This document shows, in pieces, positions 182 to 54,300 of a stretch of 64,000 bases of DNA. Position numbers and translations under genes: made by a program. The DNA comes from Hormiphora californensis (lineage: Eukaryota > Animalia > Ctenophora). How positions within the stretch are numbered: the first letter of the stretch is position 1; every line of letters starts with the position of its first letter. The notes under the pieces are model-generated. The model did not search any database. It was given only the letters and a program-made list of their open reading frames with translations, and was not told the DNA's origin. The stretch spans positions 1,736,001 to 1,800,000 of the forward strand of contig CM035358.1 in assembly GCA_020137815.1 (NCBI GenBank), written 5' to 3'.

Positions 182-7554
<7,373 letters not shown>

Positions 7555-31917: not shown

Positions 31918-32169
31918 AGGAGGGTTTACAATCTGATCTTTTGAAGGTTACAGAATGGGCCAAGATAAACAATATGGTGCTACATGATCAGAAATTTCAA
32001 CTCCTGAGTTACAGACTGAACAAGTCGGCAATCTACAAGGAATTCCCTTTTTCAGTTGACATATGTTCGTATACCACAAAATCTGGAGTACAACTGTTTC
32101 CTGAAGCTGATGTCCGTGACTTGGGTGTCCAGATGTCCTCGGATGGTTCTTGGTCTAAGCACATTGCCA
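31918..32169 (+). pseudogene. 252-bp internal RT fragment of the LINE family present at 35987-48240
   Basis: Essentially identical to 43828-44015 joined to ~47451-47514. Confidence 0.92.
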
Positions 32170-32649
32170 TTTCTTGAATATCGAGTTCCCGAAGAATAAA
32201 TGTGTCGATTACTGTGTCCCGCTAAAACGAGTGTCCGTAAGGAACGTTTCATTCACTGAGTACCTAGACGAGCAGCCCAACAGTTCACTAAGACTAAAAG
32301 GCCGCGGCCACAGCCCACAGTCCACACACCTGGGGGTACGAACGAAAAATCTAATGAAGCTGCTCGAATACATGGGCTCAGGGTAGTCGCCAGCTGTATG
32401 AACAGCCTCAAGGAGATGCTAACTGTAACATGTGGCAGTGCACTGCACACTGCCAAAAATGAAAAAAGTACCCTGCACTAAAACGGCTCTAACCGCCAAA
32501 CCACTCAACCGTTTAGCTAATTCAAAGTTAATCTGATAGGAAATGTCAAGCCCTAACCCCAACCCCAATCCCAGCCCTATAACCCTAAAAACAGAGAGTG
32601 CTGACACTCCAAACACCGAGACTTTAACGCTGCCAGAAAGGTTGGCAAA

Positions 32650-33183
32650 CGCGGGATAAGGCAGCGCTTTTCAACCAGAAAGGCTCCGCGCCAATTTTTT
32701 TGACAGACACGATCCAGGCCGACCGCGACGCGACGACGCGAGTTTATGAAAATTTATGCGCTGCATGTCGCGAATTTAAAGTGCGATTTTTAATAATGCG
32801 AACCGGGGGCGCGCATTAATAATAACATAATTCCATTTGCGCGTGCTAAATCCGGTTCCTGATAAGCTAGCGACTTTTTCTTGGTGCCATTGGAAAGATA
32901 AAAATTTCATCTTTCCAACGCAACCAGGATCAAGTCTCTATCTCATCAGGAACCGGAGATATGACCAATTAACCAATTGTGTGCGCGGCGGCCTGTCGCT
33001 TAAATAAAAAATTCGACTATACGCGGCGATATTTTGTGCAAAGCGATTAATTTTGAACGCGCATTCGCTTCAGCGCGCGCAGCACGCTTTGCTTTGGCAG
33101 AAAAAAGTTCGTTCACAAACTTCAGAAATTTGAGAACAACTCAGTGCACTGAAAAGCGTTGAAAAGCGCTGCCTTATCCCGCG
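32650..33183. mobile_element. Non-autonomous DNA transposon-like element with ~26-bp inverted ends and an internal palindrome
   Basis: CGCGGGATAAGGCAGCGCTTTTCAAC / GTTGAAAAGCGCTGCCTTATCCCGCG; internal TCCGGTTCCTGAT...ATCAGGAACCGGA; TSD not resolved. Confidence 0.55.
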
Positions 33184-33453: not shown

Positions 33454-33495
33454 GTTTCAAACTTTTCAACACTACTTTAAACAAATTAATTTGAG
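33454..33495 (+). other. 42-nt spliced-leader-like sequence heading LINE 1
   Basis: GTTTCAAACTTTTCAACACTACTTTAAACAAATTAATTTGAG, identical to 35987-36028; 45 nt before the ORF ATG; matches my recollection of the ctenophore SL exon. Confidence 0.8.
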
Positions 33496-33540
33496 GCGCG
33501 CGCCCGTGCGTTTTCGAATATCCCTCTGTAGGCTCTAGCC

Positions 33541-35448
33541 ATGCCAGATATGACAAATATGGCTACACCTACTGATGACAAAAGTGATGGCAATGCCCTT
33601 GCCGTTGGAAATCTTGTAAACGCAGCAGATCCCCTTACCAAAAAGATCCTGTCTGCCTACCGCCATGATGTGGATTACACCAAGAATCTAGACATCATCC
33701 GCACATTCAACTGTGCTCACCTGGAAGCCGCTGCATCGTTTTTCGGTGCATCCCCCGGCTCACATGCAGATAAAACTAAGCGGTACCAGAACCGCACTAC
33801 ACTAGCCGACTACATCATCATTCAGCTGGAAAGTCATTTTCCTTGTGACTGTGAGGGCTGTGGCGAAGGGTATGCAGTTAAACCAGGTGAATCTCCAGGA
33901 GATGTACCTGCCAGAATTTTACGTGACTGCCGATCATCGCTGTCATACCCCCTATCCATCTTATGGGCCAAATCGTTTGATTCTGGCATTGTACCACCCT
34001 GTCTGAAACTTCAGTACATTGCACCCCTCTACAAAAAGGGTCCTAAAATGAAAGCTGAAAATTACCGCCCGATCTCCCTCACCAGTCACATTGCCAAGAC
34101 ATTTGAACGGGTTGTAAGATCTCAAATGGTGTCATACTTTGAATCAGAGAACTTGTTTAACGAGTCTCAGCATGGGTTTAGAAGCAAGAGGAGCTGCTTA
34201 TCCCAACTCACTCGTCACATTGACAATATTCTGAACAATCTCAACGACCTTCTTGAAGTGGATGTAATCTACTTGGACTTCGAGAAGGCGTTTGATAAAG
34301 TTGACATCGGTATACTTCTCGAAAAGCTGCAGAGATATGGAGTTAAGGGCAAACTCCTTGAATGGATCCGCAGCTTCCTACTAGACCGGAAACAAACGGT
34401 CTTAGTCGACGGCGTAGCGTCTTCTTTTGCAGAAGTCAGAAGTGGGGTCCCACAAGGGACTGTTCTCGGTCCACTTTTATTTCTGATTTATGTAATTGAC
34501 CTGGAATCCGTAATCAAACACGGTTCTTCTTTGTCGTTCGCTGATGACACTAAAATCTTCTCTGCTATCCGTACTATGGTTGACAAATTGAACCTACAGG
34601 AGGATCTGAACAGTGTGATAACCTGGGCTGACGCTAACAATATGTCCTTGCACCAGTCAAAGTTCGAGGTCATGAATTTCACCCTGAATCACACCAGTTC
34701 GTTTAGAGAAGTACCGTTCAGTGCTGAGAACTATTCCTATCAACTGTCTGATGGGAGGTTCATCGATCCAACAGACACTGTCCGAGACTTAGGTGTTCTA
34801 CTCTCGAGTGATGGTCAATGGTCGGCCCAAATATCTCGAGTTGTTACCACGGCTAGTCGGGTTGCTGGATGGACGTTAAGTGCATTTAGATCCAGAACTC
34901 GCCGCACCATGATGACTCTTTACAAGTCACTGGTGCGTCCCCATCTTGACTACTGTTGCACACTGTGGTCACCTTCCAAAAATGGGGATATCAGTCGTGT
35001 TGAGGATATTCAACGATCGTACACCCGTAAGATCGTTGGTCTCAAGGGGCTGAACTACTGGCAACGTCTTCAAACCCTGGGACTTTTGTCGCTTCAGCGC
35101 CGACGAGAGAGGTACACTATGATTCTTGTGTGGAAAGTGTACAACAATGAGATACCCAACAGTACTGACATGTGTTTCGTCGACAGTCACCGCTCTGGCC
35201 CTAGAGCTGTCGTCCCTCGATACTCGTACGAGGCTCAACGATCTATCTTGTCGCTATATGAACAATCATTTGCGGTACTGGGGGCAAGGTTGTGGAACAC
35301 TTTGCCTCGATCTGTAAAGGAGGCCCCAACTCTTTATCAGTTCAAATCTCAGCTAGGTAGTTTCCTCTCTACCATTCCGGATACACCCCCCATCAGCGGT
35401 TATCCTGCTCAAGCAAACAGCAACTCAATACTAGAGTGGTGTCCATGA
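33541..35448 (+). CDS. CR1-group LINE ORF: ORF1 N-terminus fused in frame to reverse transcriptase, endonuclease absent
   Basis: RT motifs NYRPISLTS, QHGFR, YLDFEKAFDKV, GVPQGTVLGPLLF, FADD, RDLGV, LVRPHLDYC. First ~118 aa align with ORF1 at 36060 (LEAAASFFG/LEEAALFFG, LESHFPCDCEGC/IESLFPQFCEAC). Confidence 0.9.
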   Translation: MPDMTNMATPTDDKSDGNALAVGNLVNAADPLTKKILSAYRHDVDYTKNLDIIRTFNCAHLEAAASFFGASPGSHADKTKRYQNRTTLADYIIIQLESHFPCDCEGCGEGYAVKPGESPGDVPARILRDCRSSLSYPLSILWAKSFDSGIVPPCLKLQYIAPLYKKGPKMKAENYRPISLTSHIAKTFERVVRSQMVSYFESENLFNESQHGFRSKRSCLSQLTRHIDNILNNLNDLLEVDVIYLDFEKAFDKVDIGILLEKLQRYGVKGKLLEWIRSFLLDRKQTVLVDGVASSFAEVRSGVPQGTVLGPLLFLIYVIDLESVIKHGSSLSFADDTKIFSAIRTMVDKLNLQEDLNSVITWADANNMSLHQSKFEVMNFTLNHTSSFREVPFSAENYSYQLSDGRFIDPTDTVRDLGVLLSSDGQWSAQISRVVTTASRVAGWTLSAFRSRTRRTMMTLYKSLVRPHLDYCCTLWSPSKNGDISRVEDIQRSYTRKIVGLKGLNYWQRLQTLGLLSLQRRRERYTMILVWKVYNNEIPNSTDMCFVDSHRSGPRAVVPRYSYEAQRSILSLYEQSFAVLGARLWNTLPRSVKEAPTLYQFKSQLGSFLSTIPDTPPISGYPAQANSNSILEWCP

Positions 35449-35986
35449 TGCGTGTTAGTGTGTTATGTGTCGCTGTTGCTGTGAGTGTACTGAGTATTGA
35501 CTCTTTTTAGGAGGTTTATCTTTTTAAATATCCTGTGTGTTACGCAAATTTATGAATTTGATAATTTGATTTTAAGACCAGATCCATTTAAATGAACAAT
35601 GCTAACTCTCGTACGCAGCAATCTCTAATTCCTGCCTCATGATGAAGACTTCAAATTTGGAGGACAATATTGACAGTGGCAAGTTATTGTAACCAGAATT
35701 AATAAATAAACAAATGAAATTTGGAGGTTAGGAAGACTTTCGAAGTTTTGGTAGTTGAGATCCTGTAAAACCTTGTTTTACTTGAAAAACTAGAGGTTAG
35801 GAAGACCGAAGAAATTGACATGTTCTTGATTCTTTTTCTTCCAAACCTCCGATTTATCAAATCTTATCAGGGAGTGGAGGCTGGAGCAGGGAGCTATGAC
35901 ATCAAGATGTCACGTTGTGACTAATGTCCACTACTCTTTCACAAGCACACTAATTATAATTCGATATCCGGTCACTCTACCGTACA

Positions 35987-36028
35987 GTTTCAAACTTTTC
36001 AACACTACTTTAAACAAATTAATTTGAG
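35987..36028 (+). other. 42-nt spliced-leader-like sequence heading LINE 2
   Basis: Identical to 33454-33495; 31 nt upstream of the ORF1 ATG; flanks unrelated to those of the first copy. Confidence 0.8.
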
Positions 36029-36059
36029 CCAAATGTCTGCCTGACCACCCCGGAAGACG

Positions 36060-37277
36060 ATGCCGGAAATGTCAAACGAGATACTAGCGAAACAGAAAGC
36101 AGTGCTGTCGGAGCTATGTGATGACCCCGACTGTAGTGACGAGGTGAAACGGATCGTGAAGGCCTACAGTCCTACAGCTAAAAGGTACCAGACCAATCTC
36201 AAGGCACTTGATCGTTTTACGGACATTGTTTTGGAGGAGGCTGCGCTTTTCTTTGGGGGGAAACCCCGTACTGATGACGGAAAGGAAAAACGGTACCGGG
36301 ACAAAGCCAGTCTCATCGACTGGTTGATAATGGCTATTGAAAGTCTATTTCCGCAATTTTGTGAGGCATGCGAGAAAGACTATGTGATCAAAAGGTGTGA
36401 GAAATCCAGGTTCAATTGTGGAAGTTGTGGGGCAGGGAGCCATAATTGCACCCTAATCCAGGAGCAACCGCTGTGCTCTATTCCAGGTTTCAAGTGGATT
36501 TGTCACATGTGTTGCAAGAAACACACACTGGAAAAGTTTGTGGGTTCCAGTGGGGAGTTTGCAAGCCCTCCCAAGAGTGCAGTAAGTGAGGCTTCGGATG
36601 ACGCCCTAAGGAGGAGGTTCAGCTTCATGTCAGAGGTTGGAGACACCAAACCAGAACACCAGCAGAAGCCACCCGGTCAGAAATTCAACAGTGTGGAGGA
36701 GGCTGACGAGGGCAAGAAGAAAGACGATGATAAGCCGATCCCGGTGTGCCAACACTACCTACAAAATCGGTGCAAGTACGGCCGCTACGGAACGAAGAAG
36801 ATCGACGGAGTTTCATGCCAGAAGTCACATCCCCCAATGTGCCGGAGATACTGCGCCCATGGGTCCATGAAGAAATACGGCTGTCAGCTGGGGAAAGAGT
36901 GTCGATACTACCATCCACCTATCTGCCGCTCTTCCCAGTTCAGGCACGAATGCCTCAAGAAGGACTGTCGTTTTCAGCATCTCAAGAACACCCGACGAGT
37001 TGCAGTGGACGAGACTCTCAATCTCAATCGGAACGGAACCCTGTCTTTTGGTGTCGGAAGGGCTGAGACGAACTATGCTAGGGATACGGAGATACCACGA
37101 TCCCAAAATCCGAGTGGTAGCTCCAATGACACCCGTGAACCACCCCGATTTGATGAGGATTCTTTTTTAGAGAGACTGTTCGGGAGAATGGAAGTGAGAA
37201 TGAAACAGATGCTAGACAAGAGGTTCGAGAGTATAGAGACGATACGCCCGACTCTAAGTCAATGGAGAGATCGTTAG
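36060..37277 (+). CDS. LINE ORF1 with PHD finger and three CCCH-type zinc fingers
   Basis: CEAC..CGSC..SHNC..WICHMC (C4HC3); CQHYLQNRC..C..H, CRRYC..C..C..H, CRSS..C..C..H. Confidence 0.85.
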   Translation: MPEMSNEILAKQKAVLSELCDDPDCSDEVKRIVKAYSPTAKRYQTNLKALDRFTDIVLEEAALFFGGKPRTDDGKEKRYRDKASLIDWLIMAIESLFPQFCEACEKDYVIKRCEKSRFNCGSCGAGSHNCTLIQEQPLCSIPGFKWICHMCCKKHTLEKFVGSSGEFASPPKSAVSEASDDALRRRFSFMSEVGDTKPEHQQKPPGQKFNSVEEADEGKKKDDDKPIPVCQHYLQNRCKYGRYGTKKIDGVSCQKSHPPMCRRYCAHGSMKKYGCQLGKECRYYHPPICRSSQFRHECLKKDCRFQHLKNTRRVAVDETLNLNRNGTLSFGVGRAETNYARDTEIPRSQNPSGSSNDTREPPRFDEDSFLERLFGRMEVRMKQMLDKRFESIETIRPTLSQWRDR

Positions 37278-38619
37278 GGACTGTTTCTACTACGAGTAAC
37301 ATATTACTGCTTAATGCAAGGAGTCTAAGTCCGGCAGGTGATACGTGCTGGAAACTCGGTCTTATTAGAGATTATATAAGAAATGAGAAAACTCCTACAG
37401 TAGCCATTGCAGTTACTGAAACCTGGTTTAAAGGGTATCACTCAGATGCCCAGGTTGAGATACCGGGATATAATGTTTTTAGGAGTGACAGAGTGAGTAG
37501 AGTCGGTGGAGGCTGTGCTCTGTATGTTCACTCGTCGCTGGCTGTTTCTGATAGTACATGTTTTGCTAGTGCGTTTAACAATATGAAAGCTGTCTATGTT
37601 GGCCAGGTTAACACCATATTTGCTGCTGTTTATCGTTCAGAGTCGAGTGTTTTGGACTTTCAGAGACTAATGAACACCTTACAGACATTTATCGATAAGT
37701 ACAGTGAGAGCGGGTTACCAGAAGTGGTATTATCGGGTGATTTTAATCTCCCACTCTTTAATTGGGTTGACGGGTCATCAGTCCCAGTTGATCAGCCTAA
37801 CTACAATGTTGTATCGGACTTTATGGACACTAATTTTCTATCCCAGGTTGTAGAGGGCCCTACCAGGGGCAACAATACGTTAGATCTCGTGTTCACCAAC
37901 AGACCGGACTACTTCAGCGATATTTCCATTACAGATGAGGGTGTATCAGATCATCTGTGGGTATCATGTCACCTCACCTTCAACCCTCTCGGTCCAGTAA
38001 GTCTATTTCTGCCTGGCAAACTGGAAGGTTATCGGCAACTGGATCTCCATTCAGCGGACTTTGTGAGTATTGATGCTGACCTTGCAGCTACTGATTGGGA
38101 CAAACTGCTTGTTGAGTGTGAGGATCTGGGTGATGAGGATGGCTCATTGTTTGTGGAAGCTGTTCGAGATAGAGTGTTCAAGGTGGTTAAGTCACATTGC
38201 CGAGTGAAGAAAATGCGAAAGGACTTTGTAGACAAGGAGCTCAGGCATTTGACTAGCAGGAGGCGTAAACTTGATAAACGTAAGAACGATTCAGTAAAGT
38301 GGAAATCGGTGATGGATTGTTTAATTGGGAAAATCAAATCCCATCTGATATCAAGGGACAAGAAAGTGGAGAGGAAGGCTGTGGGTGCTATCAAGGTAAA
38401 CCCCAAGTACTTTTATACTCACGTTAAAAAGAACTCCAAGGTTAAATCATCAGTTGCCCCCCTTGAGCGTGCGGATGGTTCCTTAACTGTGGACCCCCTG
38501 GAGAAGGCTAACCTACTACAACACCAGTTTGCTAGCGTCTTCAGCAATCCGGCGGCTATTGATCCCTCTGTGGCAGCGGGTAACATTGAGGATCAGTGCG
38601 TGGATCCTGGGCAGGCAGC
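37262..38619 (+). pseudogene. LINE ORF2 N-terminal part: apurinic-like endonuclease, truncated by deletion and LTR insertion
   Basis: LLNARS, IAVTETW, GGGCALYV, GDFN, PTRGNNTLDLVF, SDH motifs; overlaps the ORF1 stop by 16 nt. Confidence 0.9.
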
Positions 38620-40110
38620 TGTGGGATATGTGAGGTACCCATGTTACCCCAGTGCCTCTACCTTCCTTATGATTCTTAGAGTCCCCTTTGCAACATCTAT
38701 CTCTGGGGCAATATTATGGTAGCGACTGGTAGTTTGTGTTCTCAGGAAAGAACAAGTGTGAAGAAGCCAGGTAGCGAAGTCGCACTGGTTTAGTTAGTCT
38801 GGCTTGTAACTATTCCACCTGTCAAGTAGAGAGAACCCTACTATTAGTTTATTTGAGTAAACCGTTACTGTTGAGTTTCGGAGACGCAGAGACGCATGGT
38901 AGAGCCTGGCCCGAGATAGGAAAAATGAGCTGGTCTAGCCTGCCGGTCGTTGACAGTTAGCGGCAGCTGTCGGCACGGCAGAGCCGGAAAACTTTGGACC
39001 AGGTGAAGCACGGTTCCAAGCTTGGTAGACTAGACAGTCACGTGGTGTTGTAAATATTAACCTCCGGAGTATATAAAGAGCGAGCAAATATGGTAAAAGT
39101 GTGGCTTGTGGCTTGTGGCTTGTGAGTGGGACGCCCCTAGTATCTCTTTTGTGTTGTATCCGATTCTCCGTACGTTGATATTCACACCGTGGTGAACCTT
39201 GTTGTTTTACTGTCTATGTGCATGTGCCCTAAAACAACCCCTTCATCTGGCAGAACACCCTACACCTACAGCCCGCGAACCCACAACCTGAGCTCCTACT
39301 AGGGCACCCCCCTGTCACAGTCTCACTCCCAAGAAGTACACAATCGCTCAACTGGTGACCTTGATGGGACCCCACAAAACTGCTGATGATGTGCCTCTTC
39401 CGGCCCCCGAGAATCTGAGAACCCGGCCAAGACAAGACCATGAGGAGGATGATGATGTTGAACATGCCCTGATGTTGTTCCAAGAGGAGGACGAGGCGAA
39501 AGATCAAGAATGTAACATCAACCTGCTAAGTGGAGATGTAGCTGACCAAGGAGTGGTGACTACTGACTGGTGAGAGAAAGAGCGGACACTCCATTAGCTG
39601 TTCCAGAGCCGCGGTATAACATCAGGCCCCGACACCAGCAAGAGAGGCGATAGCTTTGGGGGTGCGTGAGGGTTATAACAAATCCAACTCCAATTAACTG
39701 CAGAACGATTGGTGTTGGAAATTGAGCCCCTAGCAAGGAGGATTTGGTGTCTTATATGACGTCTTGCTTAGGAGATTACCTTGGTTACTGGAGAGACTCG
39801 AGGCGACCGGAGGTTGAAGCCGTTCTTCATTCTAAACGGGCATGTGCACGGGAGGAATGATTGAATTTGGACCGGACACCTACATCGATCCAGATGTGCC
39901 GTCGGACAATGATGATGGGCATGTGCCCAAGGGGGATAGTATTCAGGGCGGAGGCATCTTACTGGAAACTGAGGAAGGAATCTCTCCTCAAGATTGATAA
40001 CACCTAATTCACCAACGAGCTAAGTCAAGCCTTGTCTGACTCTATTGAACAATTATTCTTTATGGGTTGCAAAGCAAATGTGAAAATGGGATGTGTGTAG
40101 GGTTTTGGAA

Positions 40111-40778
40111 TATATGAGGCATAAACTCTGGCCACTGGCACGTTATTTCAGATACCTTTCTCCCAGCGCGCCGCTGGGAGAAGGTAGCTGTAGTTTATCC
40201 GCCAGTGGCGGATAAACTGGTTTAAATCACGACGACGATCCCGAGGCGGAGCCGAGGGAGAGGCGGAGGGGTTTAAACCAATAACGTGCCATTGGTCAGA
40301 GTTTATGGGTTATATACCCTGCTTTAGTTGTTTGTTTCAAGTATTACACACTAACAAGAGAGAAAACACTAATCAAAACACACAAAGAGAACTGAGAAAC
40401 AGTCAAAAACATCTCTCAATTGAGTGTATATTGTTTGGTAACAGTTACTAAGGAGAGAGAGAAAGAAATAACAAGATATAATGGGGCATGCCAGACATAA
40501 CACAGAGGAATTGAGATAGTGAAACAAAAGGGGAGATAAAGAGAGAGTAATTGGCGGAATGTGTTGTTTCTTTCTCTCCAATTTAGTGTGTAACTCTTCC
40601 AAACAGTGTTCCCTCTGTATTTCAGTAAGAACTGATCATTTACACACACTTTGAATGTAACATAGGAGTTAAAAATAAATAACCTGCCAGTGGGAAATAA
40701 TCTGCCGCTGGACTGGCTGGTTATCGAGAGCGCGCTAGTGGGACTGGCGCATTATTTAAGTTAGCAGGGTATATATTA
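40111..40778. mobile_element. Hairpin-rich non-autonomous element (Crypton-like architecture) inside the LTR element
   Basis: IR ATAAACTCTGGCCACTGGCACGTTATT / AATAACGTGCCATTGGTCAGAGTTTAT enclosing three hairpins, including CCGAGGCGGAGCCGAGG; second IR TATATACCCTGCT / AGCAGGGTATATA. Confidence 0.45.
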
Positions 40779-42488
40779 ATATGAAACCTTGTAACGGACC
40801 GTGCTTCTACCAATTAGGCGTGGTGTAGCGACACCTGGGTGTTGAGTAGGAGAGACTTGAGCGGTCTCTGCGTCTCCCATGCTTTGTAATTTTAGGGACC
40901 GACTAAGCACTCTTTACAGTATGACGAACTGACCTATTTAGATGCGGTTTATGAAAAACAACTCCTCCCTGACTTTTCTGTGTGTGTCTGAGCATTTGAT
41001 TGCTCGGATATGTTTTCTTTATCGTTGTTCTTCATTTGTACAGGAACCGCTATAGACGACAGTTTCGATATAAAGTGTGTTTTAAGGCCCCATATATTAC
41101 ACAGTAGGTATATAGTCAATCAGTAGTCGAGATTCGTTAGATGCAGAGTTGAGATTGAGACCAAGAGATCTGAGCTGAGAGAGTGAGTATGACACATGAT
41201 CTACTGGGTGGCGTGTGGTAGCATTGCCCGAGTTTGTTCGTTTGGAAGTTGTGAGATTGCTAGCTTGTTGACAACCCGAAGTGATCATCTTCTGAGGGCA
41301 CTGCTCCACGGCATTCTTGGAGACCTTGTATAGGTTAGAGTTTGAGTCACAGTCACTGTAGAAAAGAGAGAGAGTTAGGAGAGCTTTTAGACAATAGAGA
41401 GAGTAAGAGATAGAGAGTTGAACGCATCATTAAGAGAGAAATGAACAGTGAATAGTGATAAAGTGGAAAGCATGTTGAGAGAAACCGTGTTAGTACATGA
41501 GACGTCATGTTTATTGTTTAGGCGTGAGACGTCATGAGGACTCAAGAGAGCAACTTGTGTTCAGGTAGAATTGCTCCTATCTAGGACACAATGTCTGTCA
41601 TTTTAAAGCTCGTTTCGCTTTTGAGACTCATTACCTTAATTGCGAAGCCAAGACCCAGCGTAATGAACTGTATGCTTGTAGAGCTAAGAAATGGCGGCTT
41701 GAGTCAGACCTTTCGGAGAGATTGAGCGTTGGGAGATAGAGCTAGTCGTTTAAGACCGATTTTGTATTCGGTGATATCAGTGATCTGCATCTGTACTTGT
41801 GGAGCCAGTGATTCGTGCTGCAATGCAATTGGTTTATAGCGAGCCCTAGCCGAGTCTATCAAACTCAAGTCTTCGAAAGGTTAGAGTTTAGAGAGATTTA
41901 AATTGGTGAGTTAGAGGTTCAGAGAATAGAAGAGACTAGAAGAAACTAGAAGAGAATAGAGAGCTACTGAGTGAGTTGAGTCATCGAGGATATGGGTTAT
42001 TATCTATTTAGTATCTAGGAGAATTGAGATCTGCTGAGTAAGAGTTAGGCCAACTAACAGCACTGGTGTGATTTTCTGGTACGGTCTGATCTAAGCAGTC
42101 TCACTACGTGTTTGTTGTTGGTCAGAGATATTGGCACTCGAGTTTGTGATTGAATCGACGCGACTGACGCTCTTCGGTCATAGATTGGAGTGTCAGTAGG
42201 GTTGCCCGTATGATTTTGACTAGAATTGATGCGACTGACGCTCGTCTATCCGGGATCATGCGGAGCAAAGAGAGAGTGGGAACGAGTAGTAGAGTTTTAG
42301 GAAGCAAGACTGACTGAGTAGTTATATATTGAGCTTTTATATAGTCTTAGATTAGTTTTAGAGTCTGAGTAGAGTCTGAGTAATTTGAACGAGCTGAGAG
42401 GTTCCTTGGGCCAACTGCTGGTCATGAACTCCGACATGCACCTCATACCAGTTGGCAGATGTGCTTGTGCGTGAGATCTTGAGCATGC

Positions 42489-42603
42489 AGTGAGTGAGTG
42501 AGTGAGTGAGTGAGTGAGTGAGTGAGTGAGTGAGTGAGTGAGTGAGTGAGTGAGTGAGTGAGTGAGTGAGTGAGTGAGTGAGTGAGTGAGTGAGTGAGTG
42601 AGT
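42489..42603. repeat. (TGAG)n microsatellite
   Basis: Seen directly in the sequence. Confidence 0.97.
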
Positions 42604-44059
42604 AGTCGAGTTCTCTATAGTTCTTTAGGTGTTCTGAGGTGGCTTTGATTTGCCTAGGTCAGTATGCACCTGTTATGACGTGGGTATTGGTCCTGGGGAC
42701 TTCGAAACCGCTAAAAGACGATATATTACTATTTATGAGTAGAGTTAGTTAATGAGTCAGTCTTGGGAGTAGAGCTAATATTAATTAGGAGTTACTTAAT
42801 TTTGTCACCCGAAGTAAGGGGTCACTCTTAGTCTTGTAGGAGAGGGTGAATGTGGGATATGTGAGGTACCCATGTTACCCCAGTGCCTCTACCTTCCTTA
42901 TGATTCTTAGAGTCCCCTTTGCAACATCTATCTCTGGGGCAATATTATGGTAGCGACTGGTAGTTTGTGTTCTCAGGAAAGAACAAGTGTGAAGAAGCCA
43001 GGTAGCGAAGTCGCACTGGTTTAGTTAGTCTGGCTTGTAACTATTCCACCTGTCAAGTAGAGAGAACCCTACTATTAGTTTATTTGAGTAAACCGTTACT
43101 GTTGAGTTTCGGAGACGCAGAGACGCATGGTAGAGCCTGGCCCGAGATAGGAAAAATGAGCTGGTCTAGCCTGCCGGTCGTTGACAGTTAGCGGCAGCTG
43201 TCGGCACGGCAGAGCCGGAAAACTTTGGACCAGGTGAAGCACGGTTCCAAGCTTGGTAGACTAGACAGTCACGTGGTGTTGTAAATATTAACCTCAGGAG
43301 TATATAAAGAGCGAGCAAATATGGTAAAAGTGTGGCTTGTGAGTGGGACGCCCCTAGTATCTCTTTTGTGTTGTATCCGATTCTCCGTACGTTGATATTC
43401 ACACCGTGGTGAACCTTGTTGTTTTACTGTCTATGTGCATGTGCACTGATATCTATCACTCCAAAGTCCAAGTTCACCTCGTCCGGCGGTTGTTTTAAGG
43501 GCATGTGCCCTAAAACAACCCCTTCATCTGGCAGAACACCCTACACCTACAGCCCGCGAACCCACAACCTGAGCTCCTACTAGGGCACCCCCCTGTCACA
43601 GTCTCACTCCCAAGAAGTACACAATCGCTCACAGCAGTGTGTGATGGTGGATGGGGTTAGGTCACCATGGGTGGAGGTGCTCAGCGGGGTGGCGCAGGGT
43701 AGTGTCCTGGGCCCTCTCCTCTTCCTTATTTATATACTGGACCTGGAATCTGTACTGGATGGTAGTATGTGTCTCACCTTTGCGGATGATACCAAGTTAA
43801 TGAAAGCCATAACAGATATTGTTGATCAGGAGGGTTTACAATCTGATCTTTTGAAGGTTACAGAATGGGCCAAGATAAACAATATGGTGCTACATGATCA
43901 GAAATTTCAACTCCTGAGTTACAGACTGAACAAGTCGGCAATCTACAAGGAATTCCCTTTTTCAGTTGACATATGTTCGTATACCACAAAATCTGGAGTA
44001 CAACTGTTTCCTGAATTAAAGAGAAACAACGATTTTGCAGTACTAATATTCAATTAAGA

Positions 44060-44101
44060 ACAGGAGCTTTCGACTGATCTATGTCAGACGTCTTCAGCTA
44101 T
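44060..44101 (-). ncRNA. Minimal type I hammerhead ribozyme motif
   Basis: Minus strand ATAG-CTGAAGA-c-GTCTGA-cataga-TCAGTC-GAAA-GC-TC-CTGT: CUGANGA and GAAA cores, stem II with one mismatch, palindromic AGCT stem III, 4-bp stem I. Confidence 0.7.
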
Positions 44102-44400
44102 AACAACAATGAAAATGAAAGTGTTTATGTAGTGGAGAAGAGGATATGGGATCCGGGGAGGGGAGGAGAGAGGAAGGGATGAGATCCGAGAAGGAAGATG
44201 CGATCCGAGAGGAGGGGATGGGGGAGGTGATCCAAGGGAAGGGAGAAGAGGTGATCCGAGCTGAAGAGAATTAGGAAACAGGTTTGGGAGATCTAGGTTT
44301 GATGGAGATGCCAGCAGGACGGGGTTTGAAGGAGTTAGCAATTCTGGGGAGAAGGTGAGTCCATTGGAGGTTGACAGTAGGAACTTTATCTGTTCGGTTA

Positions 44401-47340
44401 TAATACATGTGATTTGGGTAAATAATCAGGTCAACCAGGAATTTTGGGGGGGACGGCTAATTCCTTCACTAATAGTTAGTCTAAGAGGTCCTTATGCACC
44501 AAAAAAAAGTTTTAAATCTGAAGTGGTGGGGAAGACCCCTATAATTGGCCTTAATTGGCACTAACTGGATATTCACGTAACTTGGCTTAGAAATGGAGTA
44601 GAGACAAAAATAAGGACACTAAAATGTGTAGAATCATCACATTATAGGGGGTAGAGACCATTACTGAGTCGATATCTCCAATACTAATTGAGATAATTGA
44701 GTTAATTGGATAATTCATGCCGCGCATGGTTGCCGAATACAAATCCTCTTAGAATAGGAGTAGAAATGAAAATAGGGACACTAAACTGTGCAGCGTCCTC
44801 GCATTAGTGGGGGTAGACACCCATGAAAAGTTCCTATCTCAATTGGTTAATTGGATAATTGGATAATTAGATATGCGCATAGCCGTATTAGCCTATTAGA
44901 TATATTCAGCAGACCATATACGATACCCTGAGACTCTAAGAGCCTCCTACATACCCCTAGTACCCTCCTAAATACCCCTCAGACCCCATGCTAGATTCCT
45001 ATTACACTCTATTAGATGCCCCTCGAAGCTTCCTAGATAGCCCTTACAGCTCATTTGGTAACCCTTTTACCTTCCTATATACCCCTCAGACCCAGCTAGA
45101 TGCTTTTTAGATCTTCCTAGATACCCCTAAAACTCTCCAAGATACACATTAGACTATACTAGATACCTCTTAGACCCCGTTAGATACCCCTAAAATCCTT
45201 CTAGATACCCCTCAGATCTTCATATGTATAGTATCTATTAGATACCCCTAGTACCTTCCTGGGCACCCCTCAGATCTCAGACCATATAAGATACCAATCA
45301 AGCATCATTAGATACCCCTCACAGCTCTCTAGATACCTTCACAGCTCCTTAGATAGCCATTTTACCCCTCTAGATACCCATTAGACCCTGCTAGATACAT
45401 ATCAGATCTTGCTAGATACCCCTGAACGCCCCAAAGATACCCCCAGAAGCTACTAGAAACCCCCTTAGACCCCATTAGATAGATATCTGTCAGACCCTTC
45501 TAGATACCCCTCCAGCTCCTTAGATAAGCCTATTACCATCCTAGACATCCCTCCGACCCTGGGATTGATAGATACCCATTACACCCCTCAAAAGCTTCCT
45601 AGATACACCTCACAGCTTATTAGACACCCTAATAGACTCCTAGACACCCCCATACCCCTGAAACCAGCCATTAGATAGCGCTCTGAGGTCTGAGGGGTGT
45701 CTAAGAAGCTCTGAGGGGTATCTAGAAGGAACTGAGGGGTATCTGATAGTGCCTAAGGGGTATATTAGTAGAGTCGGAGAGGTATCTTGGAGGGTTTTAG
45801 AGGTATCTAGCAGGGTCTGCGTTGTGTGGCTCACACCCTTTGGGAGGGTTCAGTAGATCAAAGTCTGAGGGGTGTCTAGGAGGCTAATAGGATTCATAGG
45901 AGCTGTGAGGGGTATGAATATGAAGCTTTGAGGCTTGAGGGGCATCTAAAAGGGTGTGATGGGTATCTAGTAGACCCAGGGTCAGGTATGAAGCTCTGAA
46001 GGGTATCTAGAAGGGTCTGACGGGTATCCGACTCTACTATATACCCCTTAGACACAATCAGATACCCCTCAGACCCCAGAGGGCTATCTAGTGGACGGTT
46101 TCAGGGGCGTGGGTGTGTCTGGGAGTTTATTAGGGCATCTAAAAAGTTGTGAGGGGTATCTAGGAAGCTCTTGAGGGGATTGAGGGGTATTTAATAGGGT
46201 GTAATGGGTATCTAAGAAGCCCAGGGTCTGACGGGTGTCTTGGATGGTAATAGGCTTATCGAAGGAGCTAGAGGGGTATCTAGAAGGGTCTGACAGATAT
46301 CTATCTAATGGGGTCTAAGGGGGTATGAATCTAATAGATTCTGGGGGTATCTATCAAGATCTGATATGTATCTAGCAGGGTCTTATGGGTATCTAGAGGG
46401 GTAAAATGGCTATCTAAGGAGCTGTGAAGGTATCTAGGGAGCTGTGAGGGGTACTTAATGATGCTTGATTGGTATCTTATATGGTCTGAGATCTGAGGGG
46501 TGCCCAGGAAGGTACTAGGGGTATCTATGAAGATCTGAGGGGTATCTAGAAGGATTTTAGGGGTATCTAACGGGGTCCAAGGGGTATCTAGTAGAGTCTA
46601 ATGTATATCTTGGAGAGTTGTAGGGCCCTATAGGGGTATCTAGGAAGATCTAAAAAGCATCTAGCTGGGTCTGAGGGGTGTATAGGAAGGTAAAAGGGTT
46701 ACCCAATGAGCTGTAAGGGCTATCTAGGAAGCTTCGAGGGGCATCTAATAGAGTGTAATAGGAATCTAGCATGGGGTATTTAGGAGGGTACTAGGGGTAT
46801 GTAGGAGGCTCTTAGAGTCTCAGGGTATCGTATATGGTCTGCTGAATATATCTAATAGGCTAATACGGCTATGCGCATATCTAATTATCCAATTATCCAA
46901 TTAACCAATTGAGATAGGAACTTTTCATGGGTGTCTACCCCCACTAATGCGAGGACGCTGCACAGTTTAGTGTCCCTATTTTCATTTCTACTCCTATTCT
47001 AAGAGGATTTGTATTCGGCAACCATGCACGGCATGAATTATCCAATTAACTCAATTATCTCAATTAGTATTGGAGATATCGACTCAGTAATGGTCTCTAC
47101 CCCCTATAATGTGATGATTCTACACATTTTAGTGTCCTTATTTTTGTCTCTACTCCATTTCTAAGCCAAGTTACGTGAATATCCAGTTAGTGCCAATTAA
47201 GGCCAATTATAGGGGTCTTCCCCACCACTTCAGATTTAAAACTTTTTTTTGGTGCATAAGGACCTCTTAGACTAACTATTAGTGAAGGAATTAGCCGTCC
47301 CCCCCAAAATTCCTGGTCCTTACCCTAATCACATGCATTA
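44401..47340. mobile_element. 2.9-kb foldback DNA element with long inverted arms and TAGATACCCC-type minisatellite
   Basis: TTA|TAATACATGTGATTTGGGTAA...TTACCCTAATCACATGCATTA|TTA; removing it restores the Penelope reading frame; 3-bp TSD (Academ- or Harbinger-like). Confidence 0.82.
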
Positions 47341-48302
47341 TTAATCGCCGGATGAAGAGTGTGAATAGCCGCTTGTTCCAGTAGATTTAGACTGAGGCAG
47401 GAGGAAGAAGAGGAGAGGATAGAGGTAGAATTCCAGTCCAGTTTCCTGAAGCTGATGTCCGTGACTTGGGTGTCCAGATGTCCTCGGATGGTTCTTGGTC
47501 TAAGCACATTGCCACCATTGTGAGGAGAGCCTCTCCTATCTGGGTGGATTTTCAGTGTTTTTCGAGATCGTTCACCAGAGGTAATGTTGCAACTCTTCAA
47601 ATCACTGGTCAGACCAATTTTGGAGTATTGTTGTCTGGTCTGGGATCCGTCAAAGTCTGGGGACATCAAGTCAATTGAGAACGTCCAACGGTGTTTTACT
47701 AGAAGACTTGATGGAATGCAGAATCTCGACTATTGGGAGAGATTAAAAGTTCTCAACCTGATGTCTCTTCAACGTAGGAGACAACGTTACATATTGATAC
47801 ATGTGTGGAAGACGATCCATGGGTTTGTTCCGAATTCTGCAAATCTTGTGTTCCAACACAGTGCAAGGCTGGGTATGAGGTTAGTCCCACCAGTGTTTCC
47901 TTATCGGGCTGAGACCTGGAGAGCGAATCAGTACCATTCTTCCTTCGGACCGAGAGCTGCTCACCTGTGGAACAGGTTGCCAGCGGCCGTTAACTCTTGC
48001 GGAAGCTTAGGTCAATTCAAATCATCCCTGGGCAATTACTTGACAGGCTTTTATGACCGTCCCCCTGTCAGAGGCTATCCATCACTTCCCAATGATATTT
48101 CCCCTCAATGTGCTGTAAATGTCTGAGAGTGGCTGAGAGGTGATACGTGTTTAATTTATTTAGGTGGACCCACTAAGGGAAGGCCTGTTGTGTACACTAA
48201 AACTTTTATTGTAAACTTGTAAACTTGTAAACTGTAACTTTGTTAAACTAAATTAATAAAACATTTTAATTATTACCCATTTTAACTTTCATAGCTCAGA
48301 CC

Positions 48303-51300
48303 ATGAACCGACCACATAGTCGCCGATCGGACGGGTCTGAGGCCGAGCAGGAGCGACTTCAGGAATGTAACGAACTCAGTAAGTCAACTTAGCTCTCAGA
48401 ATACCCCATACCCCCATGACCCCTCCCAATTGACATCTTAGCTGATCACTTTTACACACGAAAAATTATTTGCGGCAGACTTTTATTTTTCAGACTTTTG
48501 AACAATTTTGAACAATCAAAGAAATTGACATCAATAATAAACAGTGATAAATCTCGCTTGCAATCTCGCTTGCATTAATCGAATCGAATTTGAAAATATT
48601 TAGTGTATGAAACAAACGTATTGTGCATCTCTCCAGTCTCCTGCTAGAATTCAACAAATTGCAAGTTATTCAATTCATCCAACTATGTAATACTTTACAA
48701 ACATTTACAAACGTCTTTTGGTGAACCTGGGCATGCTCCTTACATAATCTCTTCTCTCTGATTCACTGGTAAAAACATGGCTGAAGTTGAAGCAGGAGGG
48801 GTTTTATGAACTTTATTTCGTTGGCGGCGAACTGTCCTTTCGATTAACTCCCGGGCAGGAAGGTAATTAGCTAATAAAACTTCAGAAAGTCCACGTGCGG
48901 TTTGACGGACGATATCTTTTACTGAGGCGTCAGAAACTTCGGCAGTATCTTTCAACCTGGGGCGGGGATAGAAAAATATTAGTATTTACTAATCCATATA
49001 ACATACTTTACTAAAACTAAAATTGTAGATCAAATATGTGTTACTATGATAATGTTTAGCTATTACCACAAAGCTTTGTAAACAAGACTTACTTAGAATA
49101 GAACTGGCGAGCTTCAACATCGTAGGAGTCGGGTAGATGAGTGTGTAGAGGCTGTGTACAGAGTAGCTCCTGCCCTTGCTCGTCCCTGGATCGCAGCCTT
49201 GCCTTGCAACCATCATTTTTCTTGCTACAGTACCAGTAGGTAACCTTGAGTTTAGACTTTAGTTCTCTAGTGGTCTCTTTGATAAAAAATAAAGCCTTCA
49301 ACTGCAAGTTGCACTCCGCCTCGGGTTCCTCGTAAAACGGTTACAGTGGATCCATTAGGTGGAGCAAACAAGTCCTCTGAAAAATAAACGCGTGTTAATA
49401 TTGTAGACATCTCAGGTTACGATTCGTAGCTAGAAGTGTTTAAAGCATGGACTAATAAGTGTAATTACCTGATTCATTAATAGTAGGAAACGATTCGATA
49501 TAACTATCGGACAATGGTGGCGGGGGTACAATTTGGGCGTCTGTAATGATGTCATTCAGTGTAGGTGGCGCTGGCAAATTAACAAAAGTCATGATGAAAA
49601 ATGATAATGGTTTTTCATACAATTTCGTCACACTTAAGTATACCCTTCTATTACATTCCATCATGCGACCCGATTTCACTGAGACAGGGTCGAATGTCTT
49701 CATAATATTGACGTGACAAGCTGTTGACCATTGAACATGATCATGATAATAAACTGATCAGTGATCAGCTAAGAGGTCTATCAGGGTGGTATTCGGTTTG
49801 TACACTGATCAGTGATCAGCTAAGAGGTTTGCATTGTACACTGATCAGTGATCAGATTCTGTGATCTGATCTGGTCAGTGAACAGGTCATAGCACCTTTA
49901 GTTATTGGTCGCTTTACTGATTGTCCCTGATCGTATATTAGTATTCAGGTATACAGGCAATCAACGTAGTGGACAGTGGTATTCAATTATCTCTCTCTTT
50001 CCCTCTCTCACTTTCCTGCCTTCCTGGTCGCCCTCTCTTTCTCTGTTTCTCTCTTTCCCTTTCTCTCGCTCTCTTGGTCTCGCTCTCTCTCTCGCTCTAT
50101 GAAGTTTTAAGTGACTAAAGATCGAGTACGTTTCAGAAATGGAGCTGACGAAACTACAACAGCAGTACAGGATCATGGCAAGCGGCACCAAAGCCTACTG
50201 CGAGGAAGCACAAAACGCTATCAGAAAACATAAGTTAGTGGAGAAAAGATAGTGTTGTAACTGTCCTATTTCTTTTTCTCACGTAGACTAATAATCAGTT
50301 GACAAGTTCTCATGTATCTGACTTAGTATTTGCTGCACTAACACTCAAACTAGAGTCTATTTTTAATAGGGGGAGCATCGAACAGCTGGAGAGCGAAGAA
50401 GCAGAACTTCTAAAAGAGCTAAATCTTGCTCGATCAAACCAGAATAAACTCAAGGACAAGGGTACAGTTGACAAGTTGAAAGGCCTGAAAGACAGAGAAG
50501 GTAAGATATCCCGTCACTTGTCGTGAAGTAAACCCCTGCTGGACCCCTCCTGAAGATGTATCATCTAATTGAAAATCATTTACCGAACTTTTTCCCAGAG
50601 GAGGCGATGGCGAAGATTGAGGAAGAAAGGGAGAAAATCAAGAACTTTGATTTACAGATAAGGAAAATGGAGAAGGCCAAGAGGGATCAGCATAAGAATA
50701 TGGGAGGGTAAGTGTGCATTTTGTATTTGAAACTATGTGGTAATTTTCACTCGCAACCTAATTTCCACGAGAAAGGTATTCTTCGGGCTAGAAACAACTT
50801 TGGCTAATATAGTAGTACTATTCAAATCATGAAGAATGGTGCTGGTCTGAGACTCAAGAGACATCTCCTTCTCTTGCTAATTCATTGTTTTATCTCTCTA
50901 ATTTACCCCCCTTTTCGAATAGTGCATCACAGTCTCCCTTTCCCCCTTTACAATAACGTGTAAAACAGCGACCAAACTTGATATAGACGCCAATATCTCA
51001 GCAACCATTCTACATACAGGAGTTTGCAAATATTTGTGAGAAGCTCCTTCGTCTGGTCTTGAATATGAACTAAAATTTACAAGTCTTTGTACTAAGATGG
51101 TGCTTCCATGACCAATTATATGAGCAGCAAACTAAAAATTATCCAGTATACCAGTGACATTCTACACCATTTCAACACCTTTCCTACAGTAGGGCAAAGG
51201 ATCTCTCTTCTCTCTCTTTCCCCCAGGGGGGATGGTCGTGGGAAAAGTTGATGCACTGTTTTGAGTGATCCCAGGAAAGAAAGGCACTAATTAACCAACT

Positions 51301-54300
51301 GAGAATGTCATTCAAGATAAAACTATGCAGGAGTGATTCATAAGACCCATTTCTACTATTTTAGATGATAATAGGACATAATTAATTTTTTATGCTAGCC
51401 CGAAGAATACCTTTAATATTAATACAAAACGCGGAGTTTTTACGTCAGCCGACCCGAAACCGGATTAAATTTTGCCACCCGCTGGTCTCAGGGCCTCCAA
51501 ATATGTCAAAATATGTCTGAATTGTCATTTGGGGTCATTTAGACCTTTTAATTACATGTAATTACCCTTTAATTACATGTAATTACATTTTAATTACATG
51601 TAAATACTTCCAATTACATTCCAATTACTTCAGCACCTCGAGAGCTTTCGAACGCACCCTATAACACCTTTCTACTCCTTCTAATTGCCGAGTTCTGTAT
51701 ACCCCTTATTTTGACTGTTTTTCGCGTCCTACCCCTTATGGGTTTGGGTACGGCCATCGCCGCACCCCCTATACGTCGCGGGACCTCGAGACCTTTCCAA
51801 CGAGCCATAGAACACCTCTCTACTACTTCAGGGGGCTTCAAAACTTTCACTCTAAAAATATCTATGGTTTATGGTTTATGGTTTATGGTTTACCTCGACC
51901 AAAACGCGGAGTTTTTACGTCAGCCGACCCGAAACCGGATTAAATTTGCCCACTCGCTGGTCTCAGGGCCTCCAAATATATGTCAAAATATGTCTGAATT
52001 GCCATTTGGGGTCATTTAGACCTTTTAATTACATGCAATTACCCTTTAATTACATGTAATTACATTTTAATTACATGTAATTACTTCCAATTACATTCCA
52101 ATTACTTCAGCACCTCGAGAGCTTTCGAACGCACCCTAGAACACCTTTCTACTCCTTCTAATTGCCGAGTTCTGTATACCCCTTATTTTGACTGTTTTTC
52201 GCGTCCTACCCCTTATAAGTTTGGGTATGGCCATCGCCACACCCCCTATACGTCGCGGGACCTCGAGACCTTTCCAACGAGCCATAGAACACCTCTCTAC
52301 TACTTCAGGGGGCTTCAAAACTTTCACTCTAAAAATATCTATGGTTTATGGTTTTATGGTTTACGGTTTATGGTTTTTTTTCATCTGGTATTAAGGGCCT
52401 GTCGGCTCGGCCCCGTTGTTTTAGTTTTAGGGGGGGGGGGGTGTTTTAGGGGGGGATGGGTTGAGTTTGGGTTATATTCGGGTCGGGGGGGCCTTGCCAG
52501 GCCCCGAATGGTTTATTTTTCATCTGGTATTAAGGGCCTGTCGGCTCGGCCCCGTTGTTTTAGTTTTAGGGGGGATGTTTTAGGGGGGATGGATTGAGTT
52601 TGGGTTATATTCGGGTCGGGGGGCCTTGCCAGGCCCCGAATGGTTATGGTTTTTTTTCATCTGGTATTAAGGGCCTGTCGGCTCGGCCCCGTTGTTTTAC
52701 TGTTTTAGTTTTAGGGGGGATGTTTTAGGGGGGATGGGTTGAGTTTGGATTAGATTCGGGTCGGGGGGCCTTGCCAGGCCCCGAATAATGAATGGGTATT
52801 TCTATACCTAACTGACTCTCCCAACCAGAGTTCATATGAGTCAGCAAGTGCAGGTAGCGACCAAAAAACAGGTTGCTGTCCTCGAGAACAGGCTGGATCA
52901 GGCTCTGAAGAGGTTCAACACAATTCTAGCAGATAACAAAAAGAAAAGGGAACTCATTGATCATTTGAGGCAGGAGAAGGTTATCTTTGAGAATCTGTTC
53001 AAGAAACTGGAGAAGGTTAGTGTTGCTATTTTGACAACGAATTGAAATAGTACGATAAAATTCCCTCTTTCCTAGATCTAGGGTTTTAGTTAGGGGCATG
53101 GGGCTTGAGAATGGGAAAAAAAATGGTACCAGCCAATTTCTTCACCAATGTGTCCCAAATGGTCCCCAGAAACACCAAAAAGTTTTGTCCGGCTCGGGAT
53201 GAAGGGCAGAGGGTCCATTTCCTGGTTTATATGCATGCGCATCAAGTACTGTGAGGGGGGAATTAAAAATCTTAAAAATTGGAGTTTTGGTCCCGGAAAA
53301 AGGGTCTACTCCGACCGGAAACATCGTGTTAGTGGGGGTAGAGCATGTCAAATTTATCATTAAACCATTCGCTAATGAGATAATTACATAATTAGTATAC
53401 TAATTATCGAAAAATCGTAAAAATTGGAGTTTTGGACCCGAAAATGACTCATCCCGACCGGAAACCGCGTGTTAGTGGCGGTAGAGCAGGTCAAAATTAC
53501 CCTCAAACCATTTGCTGATGAGATAATTACATAATTAGTCGACTAATTCTCGAAAATCGTAAAAATTGGAGTTTTGGACCCGGAAAATGAGCGTACCTGA
53601 TACCCCTCAGACCCTACTAGATACTCCTCTGACCCTCCCAGGAACCCCTCTGACCCTCCCAGATAACCCTCTGATCCTCCCAGATACCCCTCTGACCCTC
53701 CCAGATAGCCCTCTGACCCTCCCAGATAGCCCTCTGACCCTACTAGACACCCAAAGACCCTCCCAGATAGCCCTGTGACCCTCGCAGATACCCCTCTGAT
53801 CCTCCCAGAAAGCCCTCGGACCCTCCCAGATACCCCTAAGACCCTCCCAGATACCCCCTGATCCTACTAGATAGCCTTAGACCCTCCCAGATAGCCCGCT
53901 GACCCTCCCAGATACCCCACTGACCCTACTAAATACCCATCTGACCGTCCATATATACCCCTCTGACCCTCTGACCCAACCTGATACCCCTCTGACCCTA
54001 CCTGATACCCCTCTGACCTTATTAGATATCCTCTGACCCTCCCAGATAACCCTCTGACCCTCCCAGATAACCCTCTGACCTTCCCAGATACCCCTCTGAC
54101 CCTCCCAGATAGCCCTCTGACCCTCCCAGATACCCCACTGACCCTACTAGATACCCATCTGACCGTCCCATATACCCCTCTGACCCTCCTAGATAGCCCT
54201 CTGACCCTCCTATGATACCCCTCTGACCCTCCTAGATATCCCTCTGACCCTATTGAATACCCTAAGACCCTCCCAGATACCCCTCTGACCCTCGCAGATA

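Follow-up and report, generated by a model that had tools for sequence, protein, structure and literature searches.

Comb-jelly LINE families headed by the host spliced leader, and a plausible route by which trans-splicing could renew their 5' ends

LINEs that start with the host spliced leader (SL) are a well supported, real feature and form a pattern at the level of families, and their copies were most likely reverse-transcribed from RNA that had acquired the SL by trans-splicing. Based on our data we propose that leader-headed copies serve as sources, that they are transcribed from upstream and that a fresh SL is spliced at the terminal AG of the old leader. This self-renewal step is plausible, and we give the reading as a whole a probability of about 0.5. 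The initial annotation had suggested such a self-renewing 5' end; the origin of the leader, its constancy and the failure to find outron-bearing sources among the contigs listed speak for it, whereas the weak GAG context of the AG, stronger acceptors that are left unused and a subfamily with a damaged leader speak against it.

The window, which is the whole 64-kb stretch of Hormiphora californensis DNA that was analysed, contains two leader copies, compared with 0/100 in shuffled controls, and the chance expectation of a second copy is ~7e-20. One of them opens LINE copy B, of which the feature noted earlier spans the first 74 bases, and 42 nt of its leader (35987-36028) are an exact repeat of 33454-33495, the 5' end of LINE copy A (Table 1). 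The claim of perfect leader identity between otherwise diverged elements was borne out, as these 42 nt are identical while the UTRs of A (45 nt) and B (31 nt) have no DNA in common and the N-termini of ORF1 are 38% identical. The view that each element carries one leader and no stacked relics held as well: no second or degenerate leader was found within 300 nt upstream or downstream of A or B, and the best local scores beside the two leaders (13-24) were equalled or beaten by 53-396 of 423 control tiles. Stacking of the dinoflagellate type, that is, a second leader tail, was seen neither beside A and B nor in the 121 loci listed from the contig scan described below. The 3' end of the leader reads TTAATTTGAG; these letters are as annotated, but the U-richness attributed to them is confined to -6 to -4, with a G at -3. 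A longer leader including four bases common upstream of both copies was considered and rejected for A, as the bases are present in the empty allele.

Table 1. Coordinates of the two SL-headed LINE copies and of the host sequence that follows copy B (positions in the window).
Feature	Position	Strand	Remarks
Spliced leader of A	33454..33495	+	42 nt; first G also in empty site
5' UTR of A	33496..33540	+	45 nt; internal YAG sites 33531, 33538
Body of A	33541..35569	+	3' UTR and tail after fused ORF
Spliced leader of B	35986..36028	+	43 nt, full length vs SL-RNA gene; first letters AG; terminal AG in GAG context
5' UTR of B	36029..36059	+	31 nt; 3-codon uORF 36033-36044
ORF1 of B	36060..37277	+	405 aa, Cys/His-rich; no Pfam match
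ORF2 of B, 5' part	37262..38619	+	APE endonuclease domain; broken by LTR insertion
LTR-bounded insertion nested in B	38620..43633	.	direct repeats from 38620 and 42851
Remainder of B	43634..48262 (end approximate)	+	
RT remnant of B	43634-44016	+	
Foldback insertion in B	44434-47317		
RT C-terminus of B, then 3' UTR	47445-48126	+	
Host sequence after B: predicted ODAD1 acceptor and start codon	48263..48305	+	AG ending 48294 or 48299; start 48303

A and B are APE-type LINEs, with ORF1 followed by an ORF2 that carries APE and RT, a simple-repeat 3' tail and no LTRs. PF14529/PF03372 were detected in ORF P0003 and PF00078 in ORF P0001 and in the remnant of B, and the best PDB matches of the element proteins were L1 ORF2p. 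From C-terminal motifs we tentatively take both elements to be CR1-like, and the Cys/His motifs in ORF1 of B are presumably PHD-like and CCCH-like. A Cys/His pattern as in PHD-type ORF1s is visible in the alignment and has no Pfam match; according to the consulted part of PMC4120745, PHD domains occur in both the CR1 and the L2 lineages. The ORF of A (33541-35448) joins the N-terminus of ORF1 in frame to the RT via an internal deletion near 33893-33896, and B ends in a TTGTAAAC-repeat tail near 48262 with no evident target-site duplication. Forty of 299 sequence differences from the window are listed; 29/34 of those in the ORF of A and 4/5 of those in ORF1 of B are synonymous. As the listed ORF differences are mostly synonymous, the lineages appear to be under purifying selection although the window copies of A and B are broken. 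A short copy of the B RT region that is free of the foldback insertion lies at 31924-32170. Long near-perfect inverted-repeat (foldback) elements are found in the window at 4346-5739, 13915-15357, 44434-47317 and 53109-55855, some of them with internal 11- or 21-nt tandem repeats.

The leader is the spliced leader of the ctenophore host, as it is identical on many unrelated mRNAs and matches the published leader. In the sections of PMC8527503 drawn on here, the Hormiphora californensis leader without its first G equals the window leader, leaders differ between ctenophore genera except for their AATTTGAG end, and genomic leader copies number 718 in Hormiphora and 491 in Mnemiopsis. Scanning metagenome contigs for an exact 24-nt leader match yielded at least 121 loci, in which the last 24 nt of the leader are fixed by the search pattern. 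Among the 121 listed, 112 are mRNA-like contigs headed by the leader, which stands at the contig end in nearly all (two of the 112 are odd assemblies), and the 81 ORFs scanned from the listed leader-headed loci encode mostly ordinary host proteins. The leader pattern had no match in viral contigs, and the best match of a host gene in the window is to Mnemiopsis (74%). Two further loci, L087 and L088, carry the leader directly before a GT donor (leader followed by GTAAG) in two units on a single contig, at a spacing of 778 nt; they are tandem SL-RNA genes, with the leader as the exon before the donor. Their intron hairpin has a z of -2.5 and no Rfam family matches them. The leader copies of the window are not followed by GT. 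The short UTRs on which the initial annotation had relied, 31 and 45 nt, are as measured; however, a short UTR is the usual look of trans-spliced RNA here, since the distance from the SL to the first ATG has a median of 11 nt in the 112 mRNA-like contigs among the loci listed.

The remaining seven listed loci have non-leader sequence in front of the leader. Five SL-headed LINE contigs beyond A and B were recognized among the loci listed: L039, L042 and L064 carry APE+RT ORF2s that are 25-27% identical to the RT of A, L028 is related to these three, and L081 has an ORF1 that is 47% identical to ORF1 of B. L071 and L085, likewise SL-headed with a non-leader flank, were given no class. The contig L081 comes from an mRNA-rich assembly and includes upstream flank; as it could be DNA or a chimera, we do not count it as read-through RNA. 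Several side observations concern these loci. L028, L039, L042 and L064 form a second SL-headed LINE group; their UTRs measure 145-190 nt and retain, close ahead of the start codon, acceptor-like sites with high scores. One repeat family includes both the flank upstream of the L081 LINE and positions 32892-33022 of the window, ~500 nt upstream of A. L071 (95-145) and L015 (26-85), both oriented from the leader, resemble each other in that the UTR of each holds a small GC hairpin as well as a start-stop uORF; their ORFs are weakly related (25%, E 2e-7), and L015 may be a LINE ORF1 transcript. Leader-matching contigs in X1 (12 contigs) and X9 (11 and 3) have loose ends behind 36029-36030 and 33497 and go on with a CTGATGA..GAAAC-like stretch, which we take to resemble a hammerhead ribozyme core; they are possibly SL-headed Penelope/retrozyme elements, or else a chance part-match.

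A is a polymorphic insertion. In the DNA runs X1 and X5, contigs as deep as the flanks represent its empty allele: 33454 is joined to 35570 and a single base separates the two; 1 nt was lost at the site and no target-site duplication of A was found. As the empty site has no leader, the leader arrived together with A and is part of the insert. This bears on the possibility that the LINE targets SL-RNA genes, or that its RT, on finishing synthesis, jumps to SL RNA or mRNA as a new template. Both have precedents, as NeSL or SLACS/CRE target SL-RNA genes and U6/L1-type chimeras are known, and yet in the present case we regard such an origin as highly improbable: in addition to the leaderless empty site of A, the junction is fixed at the exon end, with none of the GT intron found behind the leader in L087/L088, the intron and upstream region of the SL-RNA gene find no match near A or B in the window, and the flanks of the SL-headed LINEs match neither the SL gene nor one another. 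For A itself SL-gene targeting was rejected, the empty site being without leader and the flanks not being those of an SL gene. Another head-to-tail arrangement occurs elsewhere: in X1 a joint (35439 to 35988) runs from the 3' end of an A-type copy into a leader, with 14 other letters in between.

If the copies were made from trans-spliced RNA, the leader could have been acquired anew in each cycle or inherited from the parental copy. Nine copies that have flanking sequence and are not SL genes, namely the two of the window and 7/7 of the listed loci with flank, keep 43, 43, 42, 42, 42, 42, 41, 40 and 35 nt of the leader with no mismatch, the last 24 nt being imposed by the search, so that 8/9 retain at least 40 nt. 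L028 and L042 have perfect leaders but UTRs of 79% identity, and in two A-family records (X5 record 18, X13 record 1) 11-12 differences were counted in 63 letters, none of them listed in the leader proper, with the G run at the junction 33495/33496 one letter shorter. The SL-headed families are only 25-59% identical in protein. As each insertion loses a few 5' bases, inheritance of an element's own leader would erode leaders or let them drift as the UTRs do; the leaders do neither, and repeated trans-splicing is thus the simplest account. That trans-splicing recurs in most cycles is, in our judgment, very probable.

The constancy of the leader could also be the work of selection, with no re-splicing at all, if the RNA is initiated on the genomic leader or immediately ahead of it, with an internal promoter provided by the leader and/or the UTR, so that it would have the SL at its start from the outset. 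In Ascaris, the promoter of the SL gene includes the SL exon. For dinoflagellate retrogenes, the consulted part of PMC5585692 puts forward SL relics as promoters. In addition, a short uORF and a CCACCCC..GGAA..GACGATG motif are common to the UTRs of B and L081, though their ORF1s are only 47% identical, and it is conceivable that this motif serves translation or transcription. For this reason the initial description of the LINEs as promoterless is tentative: the UTRs are short, but the shared motif leaves room for a promoter. Under initiation at the leader, however, every lineage would have to follow each letter of the host SL and withstand the loss of 5' bases to the extent that eight of the nine copies do (at least 40 of 43 nt), and it would have to do so while leaders vary between ctenophore genera and the families have diverged as far as stated above. 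We therefore consider initiation at the leader rather unlikely and favor renewal by trans-splicing.

A subfamily of A bears on both readings. Its 5'-truncated leader lacks 33471-33484 (14 nt), a deletion that takes out the TTAAA motif of the leader, and it is represented by one contig in X2 (depth 292, compared with 496 for the window-type contig) and by two in X5. Directly before the damaged leader stand 11 letters common to X2 and X5, beyond which the upstream sequences differ; its X2 contig also carries UTR variants at 33521 and 33526. This form was found neither in the window nor in the 121 listed loci, which were chosen by an intact leader, and its flanks have no match in the window. If it spread by retrotransposition, its source was headed by a relic, transcribed from upstream and not re-spliced; re-splicing may accordingly not be obligatory, and relic-headed copies may spread. 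The depth of the subfamily favors initiation at or near the leader, with which the damaged leader is compatible, and it may equally fit self-renewal if the loss of TTAAA killed the acceptor. The subfamily may also have come from DNA duplication or from a second SL type. In the second species, an A-family contig of depth 36 (X13 record 3) has a leader with one substitution at 33479, a candidate for a marked copy or an SL variant.

Renewal by trans-splicing further depends on the acceptor, and that the leader's own GAG fills this role stands at even odds. For comparison, 25 cis acceptors of the host genes TBC and ODAD1 were inferred; a protein-guided search gave 17 of them and reading by eye the other 8. 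All are YAG (25/25; 17 CAG and 8 TAG) and GAG is absent (0/25), whereas the terminal AG of the leader is a GAG that scores above only 2/25 of them with a leave-one-out matrix. It departs from the canonical pattern of YAG after a pyrimidine tract, as judged by these cis acceptors, and GAGs located 10-14 nt before three host cis acceptors are skipped. Stronger sites are present downstream. The UTR of A has an acceptor that scores higher than the leader AG (-1.0 vs -3.2), acceptor-like UTR sites are kept in L028 (8.8), L042 (6.4) and L039 (4.5), and TTTCAG or TTTTAG right behind the leader is kept in L081 and L071. Among the contigs listed, no SL junction was found at the internal YAGs of the A UTR, and no joints link the leader to internal AGs of that UTR. 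A weak GAG with unused strong acceptors downstream would fit an RNA that is no trans-splicing substrate, which is a further point for initiation at the leader. In favor of the leader AG, the interior of the leader is free of AG and its branch-point-like TTAAA lies at -16; similar motifs are located at -17 to -19 in host introns. In 44/112 mRNA-like contigs among the loci listed a further AG follows the SL within 6 nt, so that the upstream one of two nearby AGs is often preferred. In the excerpts consulted, trans-splicing in Ciona prefers the first functional acceptor (PMC11155486), and outron acceptors of Schistosoma are less conserved than cis acceptors (PMC5832876). A host gene with two SL junctions, in which the -3 base of a trans-acceptor could be read, was not encountered among 11 related pairs.

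The GAG problem would be avoided if the true sources were rare masters with their own promoter, outron and YAG acceptor, the SL-headed copies being dead ends. Both window copies are broken, as expected of dead ends, and contigs can drop single-copy branches. The initial annotation had named precisely such outron-bearing sources and dead SL-headed copies as the finding that would speak against it; what the contig data contain instead is deep contigs that cross the SL-UTR junction. In the B family, X1 record 8 (36009-36450) has a depth of 610 vs 42-49 in the flanks and X9 record 30 of the second species (36009-36288) a depth of 390; both begin within the SL and continue into ORF1 with no break, and the UTR region of the deep B-family contig has 6 extra letters (24 of 338 loose ends in this comparison are listed). 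In the A family, compared over 33478-33700, a region that largely keeps out leader-only contigs and for which 25 of 88 pieces are listed, contigs across the junction have depths of 750 in X2, 1150 in X5, and 142 and 237 in X13. One fixed junction per subfamily is thus seen at high contig depth in two species. At the A junction (33496) no loose end and no other upstream sequence appeared among 16 of 19 listed in three DNA runs, and no outron-bearing master appeared among the contigs listed from the DNA runs of the two species. As rare variants are lost from contigs and copy number can be read from depth only roughly, these data render masters less likely while leaving some room for a rare one. 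Moreover, there are at least four A-type UTR variants, each of which would need its own master; a trans-spliced master cannot copy its own outron, and yet the lineages are under purifying selection; and, judging by the subfamily with the damaged leader, copies headed by a relic seem able to spread. Taken together, hidden masters are unlikely, and leader-headed copies probably act as sources. Two possible RNA runs, of uncertain run type, have no bearing on expression: X22 gave 706 contigs, of which 632 fit both leader copies while ORF1 is uncovered, and X16 gave one contig (33618-33700, depth 4).

Sources of this kind would need transcription from upstream, and the read-through host transcript postulated in the initial annotation is plausible judging by the sequence of one locus. 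B lies in sense upstream of the first coding exon of ODAD1, with ~30 nt between the end of its tail and the predicted first ODAD1 acceptor. As B just precedes ODAD1, transcription of this gene would have to begin upstream of the B leader and cross it in sense, unless a nested element provides a promoter. A and B are not in TBC introns, as the TBC gene ends near 7.6 kb. As seen at 48205-48305, ~12 kb of nested elements (15 kb with A) now lie between the ODAD1 acceptor and the upstream sequence that preceded the insertions. Within an ODAD1 intron, VWD, C8 and Ig-like exons are found in antisense (57345-60264, minus strand), constituting a nested gene.

The cycle that we propose would run as follows. 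Transcription would enter from upstream of the genomic leader, driven either by read-through from the host or by a signal of the element that directs initiation further upstream, and the SL would be trans-spliced to the first exon base of the element, as the fixed junction suggests. The capped RNA would be translated and then copied to within 0-3 nt of the cap, an extent that the junctions show, and in the following round the AG of the new copy's leader would be the first acceptor on offer. As the 5' end of the product equals that of the template, the cycle would be a fixed point in which nothing stacks and the 1-3 nt lost per insertion are restored.

Parts of this scheme have counterparts in other systems. 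The non-LTR elements NeSL, SLACS, CRE and CZAR, which reside beside the SL exon, insert into SL genes with a restriction-like endonuclease; the ctenophore elements, in contrast, are APE-type and take the leader to unrelated sites. R2 is co-transcribed from a host promoter, its 5' end is set by its own ribozyme, and it has one fixed target. On the proposed model the ctenophore LINEs would resemble R2 in being co-transcribed from a host promoter and in having the 5' end then defined by RNA processing, but the end would be defined by the host trans-spliceosome, and at dispersed sites. SL-relic retrogenes of dinoflagellates were reportedly described by Slamovits and Keeling in 2008. In the parts consulted of PMC12014239 and PMC5585692, these retrogenes likewise owe a genomic leader to trans-spliced RNA and receive a new SL at an AG in the relic, the former source placing re-trans-splicing at an AG inside the relic leader. 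Their substrates are host genes, whereas in the ctenophore they are LINE families with one leader each; since the dinoflagellate AG is near the leader 5' end, 15-nt relics stack up, whereas the terminal AG of the ctenophore leader would leave no trace. In Hydra ~30% of TE Iso-Seq reads carry an SL, including a full-length CR1 transcript (PMC12220107, in part), an observation at the RNA level, unlike the genomic copies starting with the SL that we describe; the part consulted mentions neither such copies nor a self-renewal. In Schistosoma mansoni 6/32 genes with an internal genomic SL are transposable elements, suggested to be reverse-transcribed trans-spliced RNAs; in the consulted part of PMC5832876 this is a passing remark, with chimeric assembly as a possibility, and that part gives no family-wide junction, empty site or mechanism. 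The sections of PMC8527503 referred to above report the same leader at hundreds of copies per genome in Hormiphora and Mnemiopsis and do not tie these copies to LINE 5' ends. Relic re-splicing in dinoflagellates, SL-bearing CR1 transcripts in Hydra and SL-containing retrotransposons in Schistosoma are thus known separately, and no description of ctenophore LINEs headed by an SL, or of re-splicing at the terminal AG of a leader, was found in the literature searched, which comprised few subscription papers and left out Repbase.

A basic problem in the life cycle of LINEs is how to regain a 5' end that can be transcribed once they have been reverse-transcribed; internal promoters and R2-type ribozymes are the known answers. 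A self-restoring 5' end supplied by the host would, if true, be a third, and a weak GAG would then act as a routine trans-splice acceptor. Gene annotation can be misled by genomic leader copies at LINE ends, and such 5' ends may account for many of the 718 copies reported for Hormiphora. On this model, a sense insertion in an outron, such as that of B before ODAD1, could divert the trans-splicing of the host gene. We tentatively suggest, as a view somewhat short of an even chance, that many unrelated comb-jelly LINE lineages gave up their promoter and outron and that the host trans-spliceosome rebuilds their capped 5' end at the last AG of the leader after read-through, a strategy that may explain many genomic leader copies and may be general wherever SL trans-splicing exists.
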